DNA from: an uncultured Methanosarcinales archaeon
GTDB taxonomy: Archaea > Nanobdellota > Nanobdellia > Woesearchaeales > B54-G15
Length of the DNA stretch: 41,544 nt
Direction of reading: 5' to 3'
Assembly (NCBI GenBank): GCA_964519225.1
Contig: CAZFJK010000006.1
Location: forward strand, 1 to 41,544
The translations under genes and the position numbers were made by a program. Below are positions 13,897 through 40,499 of the stretch, in pieces (the stretch's first letter is position 1; every line of letters starts with the position of its first letter). The notes beneath the pieces are model-generated. The model was not told the DNA's origin. It saw nothing but the letters and a program-made list of their open reading frames with translations, and searched no databases.

Positions 13897-15154
13897 CAGG
13901 TTCCGCTCGAAGCAGTTGATTCTGCGCTTAATGTTTTACTACAACCTTTTAAGTTCGAGTTGTATTGACAGAATTGCTGTTTTATTGCCTCAGCTGTTCT
14001 TCTTCCTGTGCTTTCATCGACGCCACTAATTGTATATTTGTTGTTTACTAAGAAAGTTGGACTTGCTCCTATCTTAAGTTGTTGTGCAAGCTTAATATCT
14101 TCACTCAATAGTTTTTTTCCTTCATCGCCTTCGGCGCATTTCTTGATTTTATCCACATCCATGCCTGCTTTCTTTGCACAGCTTTCCCAATCCTTGCTTT
14201 GAATGTCTTTGTTTCTACACCAAATATAGTCAAGATATTTGTTGCCTTTTTTGTAGTATTTCTTTGCACAAAGCTGTCTTATATTTTCTTCTACCTCTGC
14301 TGGTCCGTGTAATGATACAAATGTTCCGTTCGAGATTTCATTTGCTATGTAGTGAATGTCGAATTTTATATCTTTACCAAAGGCATCAAGAACTTCTTTC
14401 ATCAAATTTACTGCCTGTGTCCCAAATGGACATTGGCTCATTATGAATAGGTCAAGTTTTCCTTTTTCTTCTGGTCTNNNNNNNNNNNNNNNNNNNNNNN
14501 NNNNNNNNNNNNNNNNNNNNNNNNNNNNNNNNNNNNNNNNNNNNNNNNNNNNNNNNNNNNNNNNNNNNNNNNNNNNNCAATACGCAAAGAATAGTAATCT
14601 CCAACCTGATCAAGATATGGTTGTAATTGGGCATATGCTGCTTGATTTTCAACGTCTTTATTGAATAAAACTGCTGGTAGATATTGAAGATTTAGTTCTT
14701 CATAAAGCGCTTTTCCTTCAGGGCTGCTATAGTCAAGTTCTTCGAATTCTATGCCCGGCAGAATCATTGAAAGCTGTGCTTTTAGCTGAGTAACGTCGCA
14801 TTCCTTACAGCGCTGATCGTTTAGTACAATTGCCTTAAAGCTAGTCACTGCTTTTCCTGTAGGACCAAATCTAAAGCCGTGTGTTAAAATCGATAAGATC
14901 AGCAGAATACCAAGAATAAACGTTAGGATTTTCCATATTCTTCCTGGCTTTGCTTCTTTCTTGATTGGTTCAGGAGAAACAGCAGTTACTTCCTTATTGT
15001 TTGTAATTTCTTCAACTTCTTTAACAGCTTCGGCTTCAACTTCTTTTACTTCCTCTTTTTTCTCTGGTTCTTGAACGTTTGATTCTGTGTTTTCAGGTTG
15101 AATGTCTTCCTGTTTTGGTTGAATGTCTTCTGGTTTTGGTTCATCGTCTGACAT
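13893..15154 (-). CDS. Membrane-anchored thioredoxin-fold (DsbA-like) protein interrupted by the assembly gap
   Basis: Acidic N-tail, TM helix, RCKEC, then after the gap LFIMSQCPFG and IGASPTFLVN; the two track ORFs probably form one gene; AGGTGG before ATG 15154. Confidence 0.7.
14478..14577. other. Scaffold gap (100 N)
   Basis: Run of 100 n. Confidence 1.
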
Positions 15155-15268: not shown

Positions 15269-18200
15269 ATGCCAGAAGAAAGGTATGATCCGCTGCAGGT
15301 TGAGAAGGAAGTACTTGATTTTTGGCAAAAGAACGAAATATATAGAAAGGTAAAGGAAAAGAACAGAGGAAAAGAAAAATTCTATTTTTTAGATGGTCCT
15401 CCGTATACAAGCGGAAGGGTTCATATAGGTACTGCCTGGAATAAGGCATTCAAGGATATGTTTCTTCGATATAAAAGGATGAAAGGCTTCGATGTTTGGG
15501 ACAGAGCTGGTTATGATATGCATGGTTTGCCTGTTGAACATGCTGTTGAAGAAAAGCTCGGAATAAAACACAAGGATGAAATTCCAAAGTTCGGTGTTGC
15601 GCGGTTTATTGAAGAATGCAGAAATTTTGCTTTAACGAATGCTAAACTGATGAGTGAAGATTTTAAGCGACTCGGCGTATGGATGGATTTTGATAATGCT
15701 TACATGAGTATTAAGAATGAATTTATTGAAGGTGTTTGGTTCCTTGTTAAAAAAGCATATGAAAAAGGAAGGTTGTATCTTGGAGAAAAGGTTATGCACT
15801 GGTGTCCAAAGTGTGCTACTGCTCTGGCAAAGCATGAATTGGAGTATAAGAAGATAAAGGATACCAGCGTATTTCTGAAGTTTAAGATAAAAGGAAAAGA
15901 AAATGAATACTTGGTCATTTGGACAACAACGCCGTGGACAATTCCATTTAATCTTGGAGTTATGGTCCATCCTGAATTTGATTATGTTAAAGCTAAAGTG
16001 GATGATGAATACTGGATTGTTGCAAAAGGCTTGGCAGGAGCTTTTATTCAAGGTGTTGTTGGAAAAAAGCTTGAAATAGTTGATGAGTTTAAAGGCAGGG
16101 AACTTGAAGGCCTTGAATACGAACATCCGCTATACGAAGAACTCAAAGAGATTTATGACAAATTGAAAAAAGAACATCCTAATGTTCATACTGTTGTTCT
16201 TTCAGAAGAGTATGTTGATCTTTCTGCTGGCACTGGTTTAGTGCATATGGCTCCTGGTTGTGGGCCAGAAGACTATGAAGTAGGTCATAGATATAAGATT
16301 CCGCCGTTTAACAATCTTGATGAAGAAGGAAGATTTCCAGCTGAGATGGGAAGGTTTGCTGGATTTGTTGCAAGAAAGGATGATGAAAGATTCATCGAAG
16401 AATTTGAGAAAGTTGGTTGTTTGATAGCAAAAAGTGATGTCGAGCACGAATATGCACATTGTTGGCGATGCAAGCAACCTGTTATTTTTAGAACAACACA
16501 GCAATGGTTTTTCAAGATTGAAGATTTGATTGAGATGATGAGGGAACTGAATAAAAAAGTAAAGTGGGTTCCTGAATGGGCAGGAAGCAAACAGTTTGAC
16601 AATTGGTTGGCAAACTTAAGGGATAATAGCATAACAAGACAACGCTACTGGGGAACGCCTGTGCCGATATGGAAATGCGATAAGTGCGGTGCGTTTATTG
16701 TTATTGGTTCTGTTAAAGAGCTTAAAGAGCATGCTGCTGTTCCTGAAGACTTGCACAGACCATGGATAGACGATGTTACATTCAGATGCAAGCATTGCGA
16801 TGGCACTATGCACAGAATCGCTGATGTTCTTGATGTTTGGATTGATGCAGGAACTACAAGCTGGACATGCCTTGATTATCCGCAGAGAGAAGATTTATTC
16901 AAGCAATTGTGGCCTGCTGATTTCATACTTGAAGGCAAGGATCAGATCAGGGGATGGTTTAATTTATTGCTGATAGCTTCGATGATTGCTTTTGAAAAAC
17001 ATAGCTACAAAGCAGTTTATATGCATGGTTTTGTTAACGATGCTCTCGGCAGAAAGATGAGTAAAAGCTTAGGCAATGTTATCTCACCTTATGAAGTTAT
17101 CGATAAGTACGGTGCTGATGTTCTCAGGTATTATATGGTTGGCGGTGCCGAACCTGGAGTTGATATAAATTATAATTTTGAAGACATGAGGGTTAAAGCC
17201 AGAAATTTAAGCGTTCTTTGGAACACTTACAGATTCGTGCTTGATCTTGCAAAGCAGGTTCAGTTAAAGGAGTTCGATGCTAATGCTTTTGGAACAGAAG
17301 AGAAATATATCTTTTCGAGATTGAATAGTACAATAAGAAGAGTAACTGAATTGTTTGATAACTATGTTTTGAATGAAGTTCCAATAGAGATTGAAAAGTT
17401 GTTCCTTGATTTGAGCAGGGTTTACATAAAACTTGTTAGAGAGAAATTGATTGATGAGAAAAACAAAGAGCTTGTTCTGTATACGTGCTTTAAAGTACTG
17501 CTTGAATGCTTGAAGCTTTTTGCACCTGTTGCTCCATTTATCTGCGAAAGGATCTATCAGGGCTTAAGAAAGGTGTTTGATCTTAAGATAGAAAGTATTC
17601 ACCTATTTGATTGGCCTTGTTTTGATAGCAAATTAATCAATATAGAACTTGAAGAAAAATTCGATTTGATGAATAGAATAATTAGCGCTATTCTTGCTGT
17701 GAGGGATAAAATCAAGAGAGGTGTAAGATGGCCTTTAAGTAAGGTCGTTGTTGTTGGTAGTGAGAAAATAAGAAATGTTGCTGAAGATTTTGCAGAACTG
17801 ATTAAGCGTCAAGCAAATGTTAAAGAGCTTATTGCTGAAGAAAGCTTTGGCAGGCTTGAAAAGGTTAAGGCAGATTTCTTAAAAATTGAGAGCGAATTTG
17901 ACGAAAAAACTGCTGCAAAGGTTATAGCTGCAATTGCCACAACGTCAGCTGAAACCATAGCTGAGCATATCAGCAAAGAAGGCAAGTTCGAAGTTGAGGC
18001 TGATGGAAAGAAAGTCGCTATCAAGAAAGAACACCTGATATTTGAGCATAGCATACCTAAAAATTACGAGTCTGAAGAATTTTATGGTGGAAAGGTTTAT
18101 GTAGATGTTGAGCTTACTCCTGAGCTTGAGGCAGAAGGTTATGCAAGAGAACTTGCAAGAAGAATTCAAATCTTGCGGAAAAAGGCAGGACTTGAAAAAA

Positions 18201-18400
18201 GGCAGAAAATAGTATTGCACGTAAAAGCCGATGAAGATATTGTAAATATGCTAAGGAATTTTGAAGAACAGATTATGTTAAAGGTTGGTGCAGAACATAT
18301 GAAAATTACAACGATGAAACCTGCCAGAAAATATGAATGGGTTTCAATCGAAAAGATTAAAAATAAAGAATTACAAATTGCATTCGACCTTTCCAGCTAA
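15269..18400 (+). CDS. ileS: Isoleucine--tRNA ligase (archaeal type)
   Basis: DGPPY, HIGT (HIGH-type), WTTTPWT, GTGLVH, EGKDQIRGWF, KMSKS. Confidence 0.97.
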   Translation: MPEERYDPLQVEKEVLDFWQKNEIYRKVKEKNRGKEKFYFLDGPPYTSGRVHIGTAWNKAFKDMFLRYKRMKGFDVWDRAGYDMHGLPVEHAVEEKLGIKHKDEIPKFGVARFIEECRNFALTNAKLMSEDFKRLGVWMDFDNAYMSIKNEFIEGVWFLVKKAYEKGRLYLGEKVMHWCPKCATALAKHELEYKKIKDTSVFLKFKIKGKENEYLVIWTTTPWTIPFNLGVMVHPEFDYVKAKVDDEYWIVAKGLAGAFIQGVVGKKLEIVDEFKGRELEGLEYEHPLYEELKEIYDKLKKEHPNVHTVVLSEEYVDLSAGTGLVHMAPGCGPEDYEVGHRYKIPPFNNLDEEGRFPAEMGRFAGFVARKDDERFIEEFEKVGCLIAKSDVEHEYAHCWRCKQPVIFRTTQQWFFKIEDLIEMMRELNKKVKWVPEWAGSKQFDNWLANLRDNSITRQRYWGTPVPIWKCDKCGAFIVIGSVKELKEHAAVPEDLHRPWIDDVTFRCKHCDGTMHRIADVLDVWIDAGTTSWTCLDYPQREDLFKQLWPADFILEGKDQIRGWFNLLLIASMIAFEKHSYKAVYMHGFVNDALGRKMSKSLGNVISPYEVIDKYGADVLRYYMVGGAEPGVDINYNFEDMRVKARNLSVLWNTYRFVLDLAKQVQLKEFDANAFGTEEKYIFSRLNSTIRRVTELFDNYVLNEVPIEIEKLFLDLSRVYIKLVREKLIDEKNKELVLYTCFKVLLECLKLFAPVAPFICERIYQGLRKVFDLKIESIHLFDWPCFDSKLINIELEEKFDLMNRIISAILAVRDKIKRGVRWPLSKVVVVGSEKIRNVAEDFAELIKRQANVKELIAEESFGRLEKVKADFLKIESEFDEKTAAKVIAAIATTSAETIAEHISKEGKFEVEADGKKVAIKKEHLIFEHSIPKNYESEEFYGGKVYVDVELTPELEAEGYARELARRIQILRKKAGLEKRQKIVLHVKADEDIVNMLRNFEEQIMLKVGAEHMKITTMKPARKYEWVSIEKIKNKELQIAFDLSS

Positions 18401-23370: not shown

Positions 23371-23488
23371 TGGACCCGTCGGGATTTTCGTAGAGCTTTC
23401 GAACCCGAGGCCTCCGCCTGTCCTGTCTAGGCGAGCAAAGGCTCGCAAATTGCAAGGGCGACGCTCTACCAGGCTGAGCTACGGGCCC
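23371..23488 (-). tRNA. tRNA-Ala(UGC) in the 16S-23S spacer, with introns at 37/38 (23420-23450) and 59/60 (23385-23397)
   Basis: Removing 31 and 13 nt gives GGGCCCGTAGCTCAGCCTGGTAGAGCGTCGCCCTTGCAAGGCGGAGGCCTCGGGTTCGAATCCCGACGGGTCCA with a G3-U70 pair. Confidence 0.92.
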
Positions 23489-25408: not shown

Positions 25409-25789
25409 ATGATAAAACTGCCTTGTGAAGTGATGATCTGGGAATTCCTGCCTGCATTGAGACGGGAATTAGTTAGGGCTCTGCTTAAAGAAGGCGTTTC
25501 GCGAAAGGAAATTGCTTCAATGCTTGGAATAACTGATTCTGCAATCAGCCAATACTTGAAGAGAAAAAGAGGAATGCATTTTAGATTTGATGCTGACATA
25601 AAGCAAAAAATTCAACAGATTGCGAGATGCCTGAAAAATACATCTGCAAGGGATAGGAGTGCTAGGCTTATAGCTGAAATCTGCAAGTTTTGTTTGATGT
25701 TGAAGCGGAAAAAAGTGTTATGTTCTTTATGCTTAAAACAAAATCCTGAACTTAATAAAAATTGTAATGCGGCGAGGTATATAAAATGA
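25409..25789 (+). CDS. Archaeal HTH transcriptional regulator (COG2522-like) with Cys-rich C-terminus
   Basis: LPCE..LPALR..L, SRKEIASMLGITDSAISQYLKRKRG, CKFC and CSLC. Confidence 0.85.
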   Translation: MIKLPCEVMIWEFLPALRRELVRALLKEGVSRKEIASMLGITDSAISQYLKRKRGMHFRFDADIKQKIQQIARCLKNTSARDRSARLIAEICKFCLMLKRKKVLCSLCLKQNPELNKNCNAARYIK

Positions 25790-26937
25790 AAAGAATCTAT
25801 TTAGATAATGCTGCAACCACGCCTGTTGCAAAAGAAGTTCTTGAAGCAATGATGCCTTATTTTAGGGAAAGGTTTGGAAATGCATCGAGCTTGCATAGCT
25901 TTGGCAGAGAAGCAAGAGATGCTGTTGAAAATAGCAGGGAAAAGATTTGTAAAAAGCTGAATGCAAAAGAGCATAAAATAATCTTTACAAGCAGCGGAAC
26001 AGAAGCAAACAATCTTGCATTGAAAGGTGTTGCTTTTGCAAACAGAGAAAGAGGAAAGCATATCATAACTACGAAGATCGAACATGACTGTGTTTTGAAT
26101 GCATGCAAATGGCTTGAAAAAAATGGATTTGAGGTTACATATCTTAATGTTGACAAAGAAGGTTTTGTAGATTTGAATGAACTTGAAAACGCAATAAGGG
26201 ATGATACGATTATTGTTTCTATCATGCATGGGAATAATGAGATTGGAACAATAGCTGATTTGAAAGTAGTAGGAGAGATTTGCAGGGCAAAAGGAGTTTA
26301 TTTTCATAGCGATGCTTGTCAAAGTTTTTGCAAGGTTCCTATTGATTTAAAGCAACTGCCGGTGGATTTATTGACGATAAATGCGCATAAGATTTATGGT
26401 CCAAAAGGTGTTGGTGCATTGGTTATCAGGGAAGGAGTAAAAATTGATCCTTTGCTTCATGGTGGTGGTCATGAACTTGGATTAAGAAGCGGAACTGAAA
26501 ATGTTCCTAGTATAGTAGGATTTGCAAAAGCAATTGATGTTATAAAAGAAAAGGATGTTGAGCATATGAAAAGATTAAGGGATATGCTAATAGAAGGATT
26601 TTCAATAATAGAGGAAAGCTGGTTGAACGGTCCTAGAGGAGAAAAAAGACTGTGCAACAATGTTAATTTCACTTTTAGGTTTATCGAAGGAGAATCCCTG
26701 TTGCTTTATCTTGATTCAAAAGGTATAGCAGCATCGACTGGATCTGCTTGTTCAACTCGAGCTATTGAGCCGAGTCATGTATTAACAGCAATTGGTTTAA
26801 GTCCTGCTGATGCCCATGGAAGCCTTAGATTTTCAGTAGGAAAGGATAATACTGAAGAGGAAATTAAATACGTAATAGATGTTGTTAAAGAAGGTGTTGA
26901 AAGTTTAAGAAAGATCAGTCCTTTGGCTAAAAAATGA
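25786..26937 (+). CDS. iscS: Cysteine desulfurase, NifS/IscS type
   Basis: YLDNAATTP, NNEIGT, HSDACQ, AHKIYGPKG, RSGTENV, STGSAC. Confidence 0.95.
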   Translation: MKRIYLDNAATTPVAKEVLEAMMPYFRERFGNASSLHSFGREARDAVENSREKICKKLNAKEHKIIFTSSGTEANNLALKGVAFANRERGKHIITTKIEHDCVLNACKWLEKNGFEVTYLNVDKEGFVDLNELENAIRDDTIIVSIMHGNNEIGTIADLKVVGEICRAKGVYFHSDACQSFCKVPIDLKQLPVDLLTINAHKIYGPKGVGALVIREGVKIDPLLHGGGHELGLRSGTENVPSIVGFAKAIDVIKEKDVEHMKRLRDMLIEGFSIIEESWLNGPRGEKRLCNNVNFTFRFIEGESLLLYLDSKGIAASTGSACSTRAIEPSHVLTAIGLSPADAHGSLRFSVGKDNTEEEIKYVIDVVKEGVESLRKISPLAKK

Positions 26938-27341
26938 ATGAAGGAATAAAGTATTCAAAAAAGACGATGGATTTATTTTTGCATCCAAAGAATGTAGGCG
27001 AGCTAAAGAATGCTGATGGCGTTGGAAAAGTTGGTAGTGCTGTTTGCGGAGATATAATGGTTATTTACATAAAAGTTTCCGAACAAGCAGGGAAGAGGAT
27101 TATAGAAGATACAAAGTTTAAAACGTTTGGTTGCGCTGCAGCTATTGCTTCGAGTTCGATGCTGACAGAGATGGTAAAAGGAAAAACACTTGAGGAAGCT
27201 GAGAAATTAACATGGAAAGATATTGAAAAAGCTCTTGATGGCTTGCCTTTAGTAAAAACACACTGTGCTGTGCTTGCTATTGATGCTTTAAAAGCCGCGA
27301 TAAAAGATTACAAGCAAAAGTTGAAAGGTGGAAGAGAATGA
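26934..27341 (+). CDS. iscU: Fe-S cluster scaffold IscU/NifU
   Basis: HPKNVG, VCGD, FKTFGCAAAIAS, KTHC. Confidence 0.95.
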   Translation: MNEGIKYSKKTMDLFLHPKNVGELKNADGVGKVGSAVCGDIMVIYIKVSEQAGKRIIEDTKFKTFGCAAAIASSSMLTEMVKGKTLEEAEKLTWKDIEKALDGLPLVKTHCAVLAIDALKAAIKDYKQKLKGGRE

Positions 27342-27700
27342 TTTTTTGCCTGCCCTGTCTTGCTTTGCTTATTTACTTTGGTATTGTAGGGATCTTTGTT
27401 CCGAGATATAGAAGTTATATTAAGGAAGGTTGGAAATGTTTTTGGGACAAGCTGAGAGGAAAGATCTGTTCTGTTTCTTTTGATAATAGAATGCGGATTG
27501 CGCTTAGTATGTGGTTAGCTAGGAGAGGGTTTGTAAGACTTGGAAGATTTTTTCACAATGAAAAAAATTTCAACATTGTTTTGACTGTAACAGTTATTGT
27601 ATTTACAATCGCGTCGATTTATCTTTTAGTTTTAATGATAAAATTCTTAATAGCTCCGCCATGTGCAGAAGAAGTCGGAAAATGCGTGCTTAAAATTTAG
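27338..27700 (+). CDS. Hypothetical Cys-containing membrane protein coupled to iscU
   Basis: ATGA overlap with iscU; N-terminal CLPC; two hydrophobic segments. Confidence 0.65.
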   Translation: MIFCLPCLALLIYFGIVGIFVPRYRSYIKEGWKCFWDKLRGKICSVSFDNRMRIALSMWLARRGFVRLGRFFHNEKNFNIVLTVTVIVFTIASIYLLVLMIKFLIAPPCAEEVGKCVLKI

Positions 27701-27702
27701 TT

Positions 27703-27819
27703 TTACTTAGCTCTTTGTCTTTGTTGCTTTCTTCTTCTCTTTTCTTTTTTCATCCTCTTTCTTTGCCACTTCCAGCGCATTTGCCAGCGTTTTTTCCATC
27801 GACGTGATGAGCGTTTCAT
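27703..27819 (-). CDS. rpl41e: Ribosomal protein eL41 (eS32), long archaeal form (not in ORF track)
   Basis: MKRSSRRWKKRWQMRWKWQRKRMKKEKRRRKQQRQRAK*, with the MRWKW-x-x-KR core. Confidence 0.85.
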   Translation of the reverse strand: MKRSSRRWKKRWQMRWKWQRKRMKKEKRRRKQQRQRAK

Positions 27820-27862
27820 TGTTTCTGGCTTTTTTGGGGGAAGTATAAAAATTTTTTGAAAT

Positions 27863-27952
27863 TGTAAAGTAAACTTATTAAGTAAACAGTTGATAAGGGA
27901 TTGCTTTTATACCTTGGTGGAATCTTTCTTTATTAAACCATTCTTGAAACTC
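27863..27952 (-). mobile_element. Remnant right end of an IS481/IS3-like element
   Basis: Minus-strand peptide EFQEWFNKERFHQGIKAIPYQLFT* resembles the integrase-core C-terminal motif (Y/F)N-x2-R-x-H, followed by a terminus ending ACA (TGT at 27863 on plus). Confidence 0.5.
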
Positions 27953-28042
27953 TCATATCAAGAAGGAGATTCAATGTCTTAATGCGCTAATCAAATCACA
28001 GAATCAAAAATAATTTCATTCAATTTTATCCTTCCTTAATCC

Positions 28043-28273
28043 TCACAAAAATTTGGAAAACTCTTCTTCGTCAACTTTAGCTAGTTTTAGAATTCCCTTT
28101 AATGTACCTATTTTGAGTTCTTTATGAAGAGGAACAACAGTCCCAACTTTACCTTCTTTTGTCGTTCTAACAAGCCTAACATGAGAACCCCTTCGTCCGC
28201 TTATCTCAAACCCTAATTTGTTGCATGATATTTTCACAACGGCCTCTCCAGAGATTTTTCTAAGTCTTGGCAC
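28043..28273 (-). CDS. hicA: HicA family toxin
   Basis: GFEISGRRGSHVRL, VPLHKELKIGTLKGILK; GTG start after GAGGTGG. Confidence 0.88.
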   Translation of the reverse strand: MPRLRKISGEAVVKISCNKLGFEISGRRGSHVRLVRTTKEGKVGTVVPLHKELKIGTLKGILKLAKVDEEEFSKFL

Positions 28274-28472
28274 TAATAGCCACCTCAAACGTGGTTAACC
28301 AAGTTCTTCTCTTTTCTTCCAGAGGAAATTCTTCTAAATAAAGTTCAGTTGCTTCTTTTAAGTTTCCTATTGCTTCTTCAATAGTCCGTCCTTGACTAAC
28401 TGTTCCCACCTCAGGACATTCTGCTACATACATATCTTCTTCTTTATGAATAACAGCGGTGAATGTTCCCAT
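28260..28472 (-). CDS. hicB: HicB family antitoxin (short form, no DNA-binding domain)
   Basis: YVAECPEVGTVSQGRTIEEAIGNLKEATELYLE; AGGTGG before ATG 28472. Confidence 0.9.
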   Translation of the reverse strand: MGTFTAVIHKEEDMYVAECPEVGTVSQGRTIEEAIGNLKEATELYLEEFPLEEKRRTWLTTFEVAISAKT

Positions 28473-28534
28473 CAATACCACCTAAACAATCGGAATACTT
28501 TTAGGTATTTAAAATTTCGCTCATTTAATTTTAA

Positions 28535-28658
28535 TGCCCCGGGCGGGACTTTCATAACCTTTTCCGTTAACGCTTTGCGCGTAACGGAAAGGGTTAATTT
28601 GAACCCGCGTCCCAGCCTCGAAAGGGCTGGATGATTGTCCGGGCTACACCACCGGGGC
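28535..28658 (-). tRNA. tRNA-Glu(UUC) with a 49-nt T-loop intron at 59/60 (28549-28597)
   Basis: Anticodon arm CAGCC-CTTTCGA-GGCTG; intron removal restores TTCAAAT and a 75-nt cloverleaf; strict BHB. Confidence 0.92.
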
Positions 28659-28726
28659 TTTTCAAAGAAACAATACGCTGGATTTTAAAAATTATCGGTT
28701 GGTTTAAAGTCAAAGAAGAAAAATGA

Positions 28727-28879
28727 TGGGCCCGCGGGGATTTGAACCCCGGACCTCCGGTTAGCCTAGAGTTCTTGGATTTTTGTTGATTGTATCCAAG
28801 AACCTCATATAAGACTTGCGCGCCTGAAAGATATCATCTCCACAGGCACGGCGCTCTAACCGGACTAAGCTACGGGCCC
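28727..28879 (-). tRNA. tRNA-Ile(UAU) with introns at 29/30 (28816-28848) and 37/38 (28763-28807)
   Basis: Spliced 75-nt sequence GGGCCCGTAGCTTAGTCCGGTTAGAGCGCCGGTCTTATAAACCGGAGGTCCGGGGTTCAAATCCCCGCGGGCCCA; anticodon at 28809-28811. Confidence 0.88.
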
Positions 28880-28950
28880 GGCTGGATTTTTTCATCATTT
28901 TAAGCAAAGTGAATATTTTTGATTTAAATTTTTATCTTTAACTGCTGGAA

Positions 28951-29021
28951 TGCGGCGGCCGGGATTCGAACCCGGGTCTCAGCCGTGGCAGGGCTGAATT
29001 ATACCACTAAACCACCGCCGC
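28951..29021 (-). tRNA. tRNA-Gly(GCC), no intron
   Basis: GCGGCGG acceptor stem, CAGCC-CTGCCAC-GGCTG, GGTTCGAATCC. Confidence 0.95.
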
Positions 29022-29044
29022 ATTTGCTTGAGCTGATGTGCTGA

Positions 29045-29117
29045 TGGGCCCGGCCGGAATCGAACCGGCGACCTCCGCCTTGTAAGGGCGACGTCATAGC
29101 CACTAGACTACGGGCCC
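29045..29117 (-). tRNA. tRNA-Val(UAC), no intron
   Basis: GGGCCCG acceptor stem, TCGCC-CTTACAA-GGCGG, GGTTCGATTCC. Confidence 0.95.
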
Positions 29118-29199
29118 AGTCTGGTGAGAGAATTCTAATGTTTTTATTTAAACTTTTTCATAGGAACATTTTTATTCTCTTTTTGTTTTGTTAAGGTGT

Positions 29200-29958
29200 A
29201 TGAGTAAAGCGCAGCAAGAACTGATCAACCTAATCTTTGATAGAGATGATATAAGTTGGCAAAGCATGCTGTATGAGCTTGTCAGAACAGAGAAGATGAA
29301 TCCTTGGGATATAGATATAGCTATTCTTACAAACAGATTTTTTGAACTAATTAAAACATTAAAAGAAATGGATTTCAGGATAAGTGGAAAAGTATTGCTT
29401 GCTGCTGCTATTCTGCTCAAGCTAAAATCTGTTTATTTGATAAAAAAAGATATAGAGGAGTTTGATAGTCTATTCGCTGAGCCAGAAGAAGAGGCATTAT
29501 TCGAAGATGATTATAATGCTGTTTCAGCAGAAAGAGAACGCTACAAAGGATTACCTCTACCACCAAGATTGCCACAGCTAAGAAAAAGAAAAGTAAGTAT
29601 TTATGAGCTGATTGATGCATTGCAAAAAGCAATGGAAGTAAAGCGAAGAAGAATTCTTAGGGAGCTGCCTCCTGCAGAAATGCCGGTTCCAAAGAAAAGC
29701 TTTAATGTTACTGATGCAATAAAAAAACTATACGAAAAGATTGTTTCATTTTTTAGACTTGGAAGAAAAATAACGTTCTCGGTTCTTTGCCCGTCAAAAG
29801 AAAAAGAAGACAAAGTATATACATTTATTCCATTGCTTCATTTAGCTAATCAAAGGAAGATTGACATTGAGCAGAAAGAGCATTTTGGCGAAATTGAAAT
29901 CTATCTCAGATCTGCAAAAGCGCTTGGCGAAAGGGCGCTAAAGGAACAAACTTTTTAA
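29200..29958 (+). CDS. scpA: Segregation/condensation protein A (kleisin)
   Basis: MNPWDIDI, SGKVLLAAAILLKLKS, VSIYELIDAL, FIPLLHL, QKEHFGEI; AAGGTG before ATG 29200. Confidence 0.9.
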   Translation: MSKAQQELINLIFDRDDISWQSMLYELVRTEKMNPWDIDIAILTNRFFELIKTLKEMDFRISGKVLLAAAILLKLKSVYLIKKDIEEFDSLFAEPEEEALFEDDYNAVSAERERYKGLPLPPRLPQLRKRKVSIYELIDALQKAMEVKRRRILRELPPAEMPVPKKSFNVTDAIKKLYEKIVSFFRLGRKITFSVLCPSKEKEDKVYTFIPLLHLANQRKIDIEQKEHFGEIEIYLRSAKALGERALKEQTF

Positions 29959-29982
29959 ACAAACAGGTTGTTGTCTTGGAAT

Positions 29983-30411
29983 ATGGCAAGAGAAAAAGAA
30001 AAAGCAAAGAAAGAACTTCAGGAGAAATACATAGAATTGCAATTATTAAATCAGCATGCTCAGGAAATCCAAAAACAAATGCAAGTAGTTGAAATGCAGC
30101 TTACAAAACTGCTTTCAGCAAAAGAAGCTGTTAGCGGACTCGGGAATACAAAGATAGGAAGCGAGCTATATGTTCAACTTGCTCCTGGAATTTTTGTTAA
30201 AGGTGAGTTGAAGGAAAATAAAGAAGTTCAGGTAAGTGTCGGCGGCAATGTCGTTGTGCCAAAATCCATAAGCGAAGCAAAAGAACTTATTGATAGACAA
30301 ATAAGGGAATTAGAAAAATTTCAGGAACAGCTAAATGCAGAATTGCAAGCAACGGCACAGAAAGCAGTTGAAGTTGAAAAAGCTGTGGAAGCTCTTTCTA
30401 AAAATGTTTAG
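29983..30411 (+). CDS. pfdA: Prefoldin subunit alpha
   Basis: Coiled coils flanking ELYVQLAPGIFVKG..VQVSVGGNVVVPK. Confidence 0.88.
   Translation: MAREKEKAKKELQEKYIELQLLNQHAQEIQKQMQVVEMQLTKLLSAKEAVSGLGNTKIGSELYVQLAPGIFVKGELKENKEVQVSVGGNVVVPKSISEAKELIDRQIRELEKFQEQLNAELQATAQKAVEVEKAVEALSKNV

Positions 30412-34765: not shown

Positions 34766-40499
<5,734 letters not shown>

Follow-up and report, generated by a model that had tools for sequence, protein, structure and literature searches.

The tRNA-Ile(UAU) gene of Nanoarchaeum equitans is interrupted by an intron. The tRNA-Ile3(UAU) of this species and that of Korarchaeum cryptofilum are the textbook cases of a genomic UAU anticodon standing in place of tRNA-Ile2(CAU), and the Korarchaeum gene is likewise intron-bearing and resembles the tRNA-Ile(GAU) of its own genome (PMC8450103, PMC6000648). 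In 2011 Fujishima et al. reported tRNA-Ile(UAU) from ARMAN-2, ARMAN-4 and ARMAN-5, which are without TiaS and without tRNA-Ile(CAU) (PMC3239211). The pre-tRNA-Ile(UAU) of Candidatus Micrarchaeum acidiphilum ARMAN-2, which has one intron of 25 nt at position 37/38 in a strict hBHBh' motif, was cleaved in vitro by the archaeon's own endonuclease, an enzyme of the epsilon2 three-unit type (PMC3239211). DPANN genomes with alpha4 endonucleases carrying an L3 loop are also on record, and one Woesearchaeota genome has already been surveyed (PMC5829648). In Thermoproteales, multiple-intron tRNA genes occur and similar introns have spread among genes (PMC4033280), and in Cyanidioschyzon multiple motifs are removed sequentially, the one at 37/38 always being the last (PMC3978253). 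On yeast tRNA-Ile(UAU), Pus1 acts solely at the precursor stage, where it makes pseudouridine at positions 34 and 36, and Elp is kept from U34 by the intron (PMC11408192, PMC4090602). Mycoplasma mobile, a bacterium with a reduced genome and without the cytidine-modifying enzyme, reads AUA with an intron-less tRNA-Ile2(UAU) whose U34 was shown to be unmodified (PMC3575796).

Here we describe a tRNA-Ile(UAU) gene of a Woesearchaeota archaeon, located in a stretch of 41,544 nucleotides which was analysed as a whole and is called the window hereafter. We consider it very probable that this is a functional gene, encoding the AUA decoder of an archaeon devoid of TiaS, and that the tRNA is matured from a precursor of 153 nt with two protein-spliced introns. 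The locus resembles that of ARMAN-2 in its DPANN host, its UAU anticodon, the absence of TiaS and the 37/38 intron in a strict motif; cleavage was seen in ARMAN-2, whereas here it is predicted from sequence (PMC3239211). It differs from ARMAN-2 in an extra intron at 29/30, which leaves the anticodon on an exon of 8 nt, and in its endonuclease, which is a single alpha-type subunit of 174 aa. The genomic UAU anticodon is shared with N. equitans and K. cryptofilum, and the intron and the resemblance to the genome's own tRNA-Ile(GAU) with the latter (PMC8450103, PMC6000648). However, those two are single species in other phyla, whereas here the trait spans an order. Similar introns are spread among genes as in Thermoproteales (PMC4033280). 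With yeast and metazoan tRNA-Ile(UAU) the gene has in common a conserved 37/38 intron that pairs with the UAU anticodon (PMC4090602, PMC11408192, PMC12530127). On the other hand, yeast employs Pus1, whereas no Pus1/TruA was found in the host genome, and archaeal cells have no nucleus that could impose an order on the steps. As in M. mobile, UAU would read AUA in a reduced genome without a cytidine-modifying enzyme; U34 is known there from the tRNA itself and here from the gene alone (PMC3575796). The known picture is extended by this gene, not changed.

The tRNA gene and its two introns

A search with Rfam RF00005 placed a tRNA gene of 153 nt on the minus strand of the window, from 28879 to 28727. 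The match scored 46.8 bits against a gathering score of 29 (E 4.8e-07) and ran through the model end to end (positions 1-71 of 71), with 89 extra bases, all of them inside the anticodon arm. The gene is divided into three exons and two introns as listed in Table 1. When the exons were joined in silico, we obtained a 75-nt cloverleaf with a 7-nt anticodon loop, which ARAGORN called as tRNA-Ile(tat). The preliminary description of this DNA had proposed exactly such a two-intron tRNA-Ile(UAU) with the anticodon on a micro-exon, and sequence reading, Rfam and ARAGORN bore out all of its coordinates as well as the lengths, positions and helices that it gave for the introns; the strand, which it left unstated, is the minus strand. 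CCA is not encoded at the 3' end and the discriminator is A73. The last 30 bases of exon 3 are identical to the tRNA-Ile(GAU) of the same genome, with which the spliced product shares 60 of 75 positions, including the whole of the acceptor stem, the variable loop and the T arm. The body had also been described as Ile-type with A73. Of this, A73 and the acceptor and T arms of Ile(GAU) stand, but among the 31 intron-less tRNAs compared tRNA-Arg(CCU) is equally close, likewise with 60 matches.

Plain ARAGORN gave no call at the locus, and a whole-genome tRNA search skipped it too. With introns allowed, ARAGORN returned a tRNA-His(gtg), a miscall in which one single intron was forced onto the locus. 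In the same mode it also called a tRNA-Lys(ctt) at 26601-26771 on the plus strand, a false positive lying inside the ORF of a class-V aminotransferase (IscS-like; 25786-26937).

Table 1. Positions of the tRNA-Ile(UAU) gene parts and of other features discussed in the text. Coordinates without a contig label are those of the window; G000 is the host's own genome and G026 a relative.
Feature	Position	Strand	Description	Evidence
Exon 1	28849-28879	-	31 nt; tRNA positions 1-29: acceptor 5' strand, D arm, anticodon stem bases 1-3	Rfam alignment and sequence
Intron 1	28816-28848	-	33 nt; position 29/30	Bulge-helix-bulge; MFE fold; absent from genus mate G001; compensatory changes in inner helix among ten other genomes
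Exon 2 (micro-exon)	28808-28815	-	GTCTTATA, 8 nt; positions 30-37 including the anticodon	Invariant in relatives
Anticodon UAU	28809-28811	-	ATA on the plus strand	
Intron 2	28763-28807	-	45 nt; canonical position 37/38	Bulge-helix-bulge; 73-80% identical to the second intron in 7 of 10 other double-intron genes
Exon 3	28727-28762	-	36 nt; positions 38-73: anticodon stem 3' strand, variable loop, T arm, acceptor 3' strand, A73	
IleRS	15269-18400	+	1043 aa; expected charging enzyme	Pfam tRNA-synt_1 2.1e-126, Anticodon_1 2.4e-28
Scaffold gap	about 14478-14577		100 N, upstream of the IleRS gene	
tRNA-Ala(UGC)	23371-23488	-	In the 16S-23S spacer; two introns	
tRNA-Glu(UUC)	28535-28658	-	T-loop intron	ARAGORN after in-silico intron removal
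CDC48-type AAA ATPase	35250-40499	+	1749 aa	Intein_splicing and LAGLIDADG_3, two stretches each
EndA	G000:C3:49027-49287		174 aa	PF02778 and PF01974 (N and C domains)
RtcB	G000:C1:43142-45922	-	979 aa	Pfam match in two distant pieces
tRNA-Ile(GAU)	G000:C22:4538-4612			
tRNA 3' half	G000:C27:8230-8267	-	At contig end	
Elongator-like tRNA(CAU)	G026:C1:444638-444729		15-nt intron at 37/38	
L132	G077:C50		Three introns (29/30, 37/38, T loop); another family	45-nt second intron 73-76% identical to the window's
L137	G173:C7		Three introns (29/30, 37/38, T loop); another family	45-nt second intron 73-76% identical to the window's

Both introns present a 4-bp helix between two 3-nt bulges, and the predicted cut after the second base of each bulge gives the exon ends of Table 1. 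In intron 1 the central helix is GCGC/GCGC, with bulges CG|U and AA|G and an inner helix GCCUG/CAGGC of 5 bp, and the outer helix h has 3 bp (A23-U31, G22-C32 and A21-U33). In intron 2 the central helix CUUA/UAGG (one G-U) takes in C32 to A35, so that U34 and A35 are paired, the bulges are UA|U and CU|A, and the inner helix has 3+9 bp; its outer helix is the anticodon stem, which is interrupted by intron 1 and becomes complete only once intron 1 is removed. C32 and U33 are needed twice, in motif 1 for the outer and in motif 2 for the central helix, an overlap which by itself gives no direction. By their predicted structure both are strict archaeal bulge-helix-bulge tRNA introns. The MFE fold of the 153-nt precursor recovered motif 1 base for base (z -6.1), and 0 of 200 shuffles folded as well. 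In the computed ensemble, central-helix probabilities were low (about 0.2 and 0.09), with a competing alternative D-loop pairing. The same low probabilities and dominant D-loop pairing were noticed for the precursor and two in-silico intermediates, and the splicing order is not settled by these values.

Reliability of the sequence and the host genome

The gene is spanned with 0 differences by two assembled contigs, 387 and 359 nt long, which come from two samples of a single study; one of these samples may be the source. As regards a sequence error, with CAT at 28809-28811, no variant was listed at these positions in contigs of 4 runs, in which, being contigs, rare variants would be invisible, and the anticodon is taken as UAU. 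A run from another study yielded a form that skips 78 bases and has 31 other letters in their place, which is the single-intron form of the genus mate described below.

The host genome is a MAG of Woesearchaeota (DPANN) of 869 kb in 53 contigs with N gaps, 36.5% G+C and 97% complete. The IleRS encoded in the window is 92% identical to that of a Candidatus Woesearchaeota MAG, and nearly all its other full-length relatives are from Woesearchaeota or Nanoarchaeota MAGs, some of which were labelled otherwise by their depositors. The window also carries an rRNA operon and a minus-strand tRNA cluster of Val(UAC), Gly(GCC), Ile(UAU) and Glu(UUC). A scaffold gap lies upstream of the IleRS gene (Table 1).

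The 29/30 intron in the genus mate and across the order

The genus mate G001 has an IleRS 92% identical to that of the window, and its tRNA-Ile(UAU) locus is collinear with window positions 27227-30379, with flanks 87-93% identical. The last 44 bases of the gene, exon 3 within them, are 100% identical between the two, and exon 1 is identical at 29 of 31 positions. The stretch from intron 2 through intron 1 is the sole part of the locus that does not align. The G001 gene is uninterrupted at 29/30 and has a different intron, of 31 nt, at 37/38. Because the G001 exons are uninterrupted there, the 33 bases are an insertion precisely at the predicted 29/30 site, and at the level of sequence comparison the 29/30 exon junction is proved. 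The introns have turned over between these two congeneric genomes.

We searched further genomes for a split pattern, defined as 12-42 extra bases between the D stem and GTCTTATA, which gave no control hits. It was present in 2 of 151 genomes and, in a wider set, in 12 of 401, and 11 of these 12 are tRNA genes, namely our own and ten others; the match in G339 was not a tRNA by eye. The ten others (that of G209 being unpublished) are real double- or triple-intron tRNA genes, scattered over nine other families. Their first introns, of 22-31 nt, occupy the same 29/30 position, and in the eight genes whose motif was parsed by script the intron contributes GCG(C/T) to the central helix, with the bulge AA coming after it. 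RNAalifold on the 11 double-intron genes, including that of G209, recovered motif 1 and both inner helices, with compensatory changes at 15 of 24 pairs. The double-intron form appears to be under selection. In 7 of the ten other genes the second intron is 45-46 nt long and closely resembles intron 2 of the window (Table 1), whereas in 25 parsed single-intron genes identity to it reached at most 56%. The inner helix of the second intron also seems much longer in the double-intron genes, which is an impression gained by eye. Two genes of another family, L132 and L137, have three introns (Table 1).

In a quick single-gene tree of IleRS with 30 rows, for which the single-intron rows were chosen by convenience, the double-intron label required 8 changes, of which well-supported branches force 5 or more. 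When the labels were shuffled, the count on this tree was no worse (mean 8.6; 211 of 500 shuffles were as low). A blastn-short search of the host's own genome for paralogues of either intron gave chance matches of 11-16 nt only. The combination of the genus mate's exons with introns like those of distant relatives speaks for lateral spread of the intron-bearing segment, or its conversion, or else for an old polymorphism with many losses, for which the quick tree is weak ground. The presence and absence of the 29/30 intron in congeners, together with look-alike pairs in unrelated families, offer a clean case for the study of bulge-helix-bulge intron gain.

The fresh element of this gene is the 29/30 intron with its scattered look-alike relatives only; the rest is ordinary for the lineage. 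In the literature searched, which left the primary Thermoproteales papers and supplements outside, we found no description of an 8-nt anticodon exon or of the pairing of 29/30 with 37/38 introns. Multiple-intron tRNA genes of Thermoproteales were reportedly treated by Sugahara in 2007 and 2008. Genes of this kind may already be listed in the supplementary tRNA tables of PMC5829648 and PMC3239211.

AUA decoding in the Woesearchaeales

The preliminary description argued for TiaS-independent decoding of AUA. A search of the genome for tiaS was run with the profile of the TiaS domain PF08489 (TiaS_FLD), and gave 0 matches in the 97%-complete genome of the host and 0 in 151 genomes of the order, whereas 4 of 4 archaeal controls were positive; PF08489 models one TiaS domain only. 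The 151 genomes are an even sampling of the order, 115 of them of high quality. An uninterrupted UAU anticodon-arm pattern, running from the D stem through A37 with one mismatch allowed, had exactly one match in 116 of the 150 other genomes (including the unpublished G113 and G132), and a reversed control pattern gave 5 hits. Stem-based scans of the host genome detected UAU in no other tRNA-like anticodon arm. AUA is a major codon there, accounting for 6420 of 16867 Ile codons (38%) in 465 long ORFs, that is 32.8 per 1000 against 17.7 for AUG. In the window itself ATA, which had been described as common, makes up 243 of 642 Ile codons in 17 ORFs. Since no TiaS was found in the order, the UAU arm is conserved and AUA amounts to 38% of the Ile codons, decoding of AUA without TiaS is supported as a lineage-wide trait of the order, one that is already known from ARMAN, Nanoarchaeum and Korarchaeum. 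On the other hand, the notion that UAU is a rare exception, confined to Nanoarchaeum and Korarchaeum, did not hold, for it is the norm of a whole order here and the ARMAN-2, -4 and -5 cases have been known since 2011 (PMC3239211). Our literature search brought up no statement that TiaS is lacking from the Woesearchaeota as a group.

All 30 tRNA-Ile(UAU) loci that were fetched from relatives contain a 37/38 intron, with lengths of 24-43 nt and a sequence that turns over, and its central helix with C32 to A35 is fully paired (4 of 4) in 25 of them and has 3 of 4 pairs in the other 5. In many of these genes the D or T loop is interrupted by introns too. For annotation this means that Woesearchaeota genomes seem to be without an AUA decoder unless introns are modelled.

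Furthermore, we took a census of tRNA genes, with particular regard to those with a CAU anticodon. ARAGORN and stem-based scans together gave about 45 tRNA genes in the host genome, about ten of them with a T-loop intron and missed by both standard tools. A scan of GC islands for hidden tRNAs was given up in favour of the stem-based scans, as its 190 islands were too unspecific. The only intact CAU tRNA found was the initiator, which has an A1:U72 pair. Neither an elongator tRNA-Met nor a tRNA-Thr(UGU) turned up in the 53 contigs of the assembly, whether uninterrupted or with an intron at 37/38. A tRNA 3' half stands at a contig end (Table 1), and its last anticodon-loop bases would be compatible with a U as the final anticodon base (Met, Thr or Ile); compared with the DNA of G001, G022 and G004, it matched only tRNA-Val genes of G022. 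Because the assembly is incomplete for tRNAs, we do not claim the absence of a third CAU tRNA for this genome, and a CAU-type tRNA-Ile2 is formally still conceivable in it. The census was accordingly extended to the relative G026, which is a whole single contig of 774 kb and 99% complete. G026 has the initiator CAU, one elongator-like CAU, Ile(GAU), and an Ile(UAU) in the same Val-Gly-Ile-Glu cluster. No third CAU tRNA and no further tRNA-like CAU arm were detected on its single contig. The elongator-like tRNA(CAU) of G026, which ARAGORN miscalled as tRNA-Ala(agc), has an intron of 15 nt at 37/38, so that in this order the elongator tRNA-Met, too, would seem to carry an intron. If read as proposed here, the tRNA-Ile(UAU) gene would show how finely a tRNA gene may be cut and yet remain the only one to serve a codon with a share of 3% among all codons.

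Processing of the precursor and the wobble uridine

The host genome encodes the two enzymes that our model of maturation employs, a splicing endonuclease EndA of a single subunit with N and C domains and an RNA ligase RtcB (Table 1). Its 174-aa EndA fits the alpha4 type of DPANN with often disrupted tRNA genes (PMC5829648). As both motifs are strict, both should be substrates of the endonuclease. Enzymes of the alpha4 type are classically narrow in their specificity. In the proposed pathway, the single alpha-type endonuclease would cut the two 3-nt bulges of each motif and RtcB would join the three exons, with the 8-nt anticodon exon in the middle. The 75-nt tRNA would then be charged by IleRS, and U34 would pair with the A of AUA. 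For the order of events, we infer from the motifs that intron 1 may be excised first, a guess suggested by its four G-C pairs and G+C-rich inner helix. Its removal would restore the 5-bp anticodon stem, which is the outer helix of the 37/38 motif, and thereby a canonical substrate. Alternatively, the long inner helix of intron 2 might permit cleavage without the anticodon stem.

As regards the treatment of U34, the Pus1/TruA family PF01416 had 0 matches in the host genome and was matched in 1 of 151 genomes of the order, against 13 of 14 controls, while TruD/Pus7 and Elp3 (620 bits) are present in the host. Since PF01416 is unmatched here and in 150 of the 151 genomes, a route of the yeast type through Pus1 for the intron-dependent modification that had been considered for this tRNA is not supported. 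U34 could receive an xm5-type modification by way of Elp3, which would favour misreading of AUG. An intron-dependent step by another enzyme and an unmodified U34 as in Mycoplasma mobile (PMC3575796) are both conceivable; we think it most likely that the 37/38 intron, paired with U34 and A35, would govern the treatment of U34 before splicing through an enzyme other than Pus1. The reading of UAU throughout an order without TiaS, combined with the constant 37/38 intron, makes this a natural system for the role of the intron at U34.

Several other explanations of the locus have to be weighed against a functional two-intron gene. That the interruption at 29/30 is an artefact of assembly or sequencing might be thought of for a MAG in 53 contigs with N gaps, but the two contigs of 387 and 359 nt agree with it at 0 differences (two samples of one study, one maybe the source), the insert has the exact geometry of a motif, and introns at this site occur in ten other genomes, and we regard the chance of such an artefact as negligible. 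It is also very improbable, though a shade less so, that we are dealing with a decaying or inactive copy which the extra intron has disabled, AUA being read by some other tRNA missed in the assembly. The fragmentation of the assembly, from which at least 2 expected tRNAs are missing, and the failure of ARAGORN and the whole-genome tRNA search to give a correct call could be cited for it. Yet both motifs are perfect, the same architecture recurs with compensatory changes in ten other genomes, and the exons are identical or nearly so to those of the genus mate. Moreover, a genome in which AUA holds 38% of the Ile codons, in an order where TiaS was not found, speaks against the loss of its UAU reader.

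The functional gene being preferred, the part that its introns play in decoding is the more debatable matter. We see as possible, albeit doubtful, that U34 is unmodified and that AUA and AUG are told apart by the tRNA body and the ribosome, in the style of M. mobile tRNA-Ile2(UAU), the introns being neutral passengers without any decoding role. The wobble U of the M. mobile tRNA is indeed unmodified (PMC3575796), and the scarcity of Pus1/TruA, with 0 matches in the host and 1 in 151 genomes, would agree with this. Canonical introns are found also in Tyr, Leu and the elongator-like Met of G026, and their retention need not imply a role in decoding. What argues against passenger introns is that the 37/38 intron is kept in 30 of 30 sampled genes in spite of its sequence turnover and that its central helix always pairs U34 and A35; against an unmodified U34 stand the presence of Elp3 and the precedent of yeast, in which the intron keeps Elp off U34 (PMC11408192). 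An intron-dependent treatment of U34 by a non-Pus1 enzyme is what we favour, and it may be carried into a more far-reaching proposal, which as a whole we deem unlikely. According to this, the 29/30 intron and the distinctive 45-nt intron at 37/38 would be a linked pair moving between Woesearchaeales lineages at the DNA level, for example by conversion of the central segment with the conserved exons as homology arms, and the order-wide retention of the 37/38 intron would reflect an intron-dependent step at U34 which sets AUA apart from AUG without Pus1, convergent with eukaryotes.

Other introns and inteins

Besides the tRNA-Ile(UAU) gene, several genes of the window and of the host genome are interrupted. 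The neighbouring tRNA-Glu(UUC) has a T-loop intron of ~49 nt (about 59/60) and was missed by Rfam at the gathering score and by ARAGORN, which calls it after in-silico removal of the intron. About ten more tRNA genes with T-loop introns, of about 29-112 nt, were located on contigs C2, C8, C9, C12, C18 and C25 of the host genome; T-loop introns were assigned there to Glu CUC, Gln CUG and UUG, Asp, Lys UUU, Ser GCU, Leu GAG and UAG, and Pro UGG. The motifs of the T-loop introns of this genome are not strict, unlike those of both introns of tRNA-Ile(UAU). The T-loop introns of Glu(UUC) and Leu(GAG) have a long stretch of sequence in common, and those in the Ile(UAU) genes of relatives end in GAAAG. 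Taken together, the T-loop introns look like one intron family spreading among genes. The tRNA-Ala(UGC) in the 16S-23S spacer has a canonical intron of 31 nt and a short T-loop intron.

Two apparent inteins, with two stretches each of Intein_splicing and LAGLIDADG_3 domains, were noticed in the CDC48-type AAA ATPase of the window. The RtcB frame, whose Pfam match falls into two distant pieces (Table 1), probably contains an intein as well, and a second, partial RtcB match is located on contig C36.
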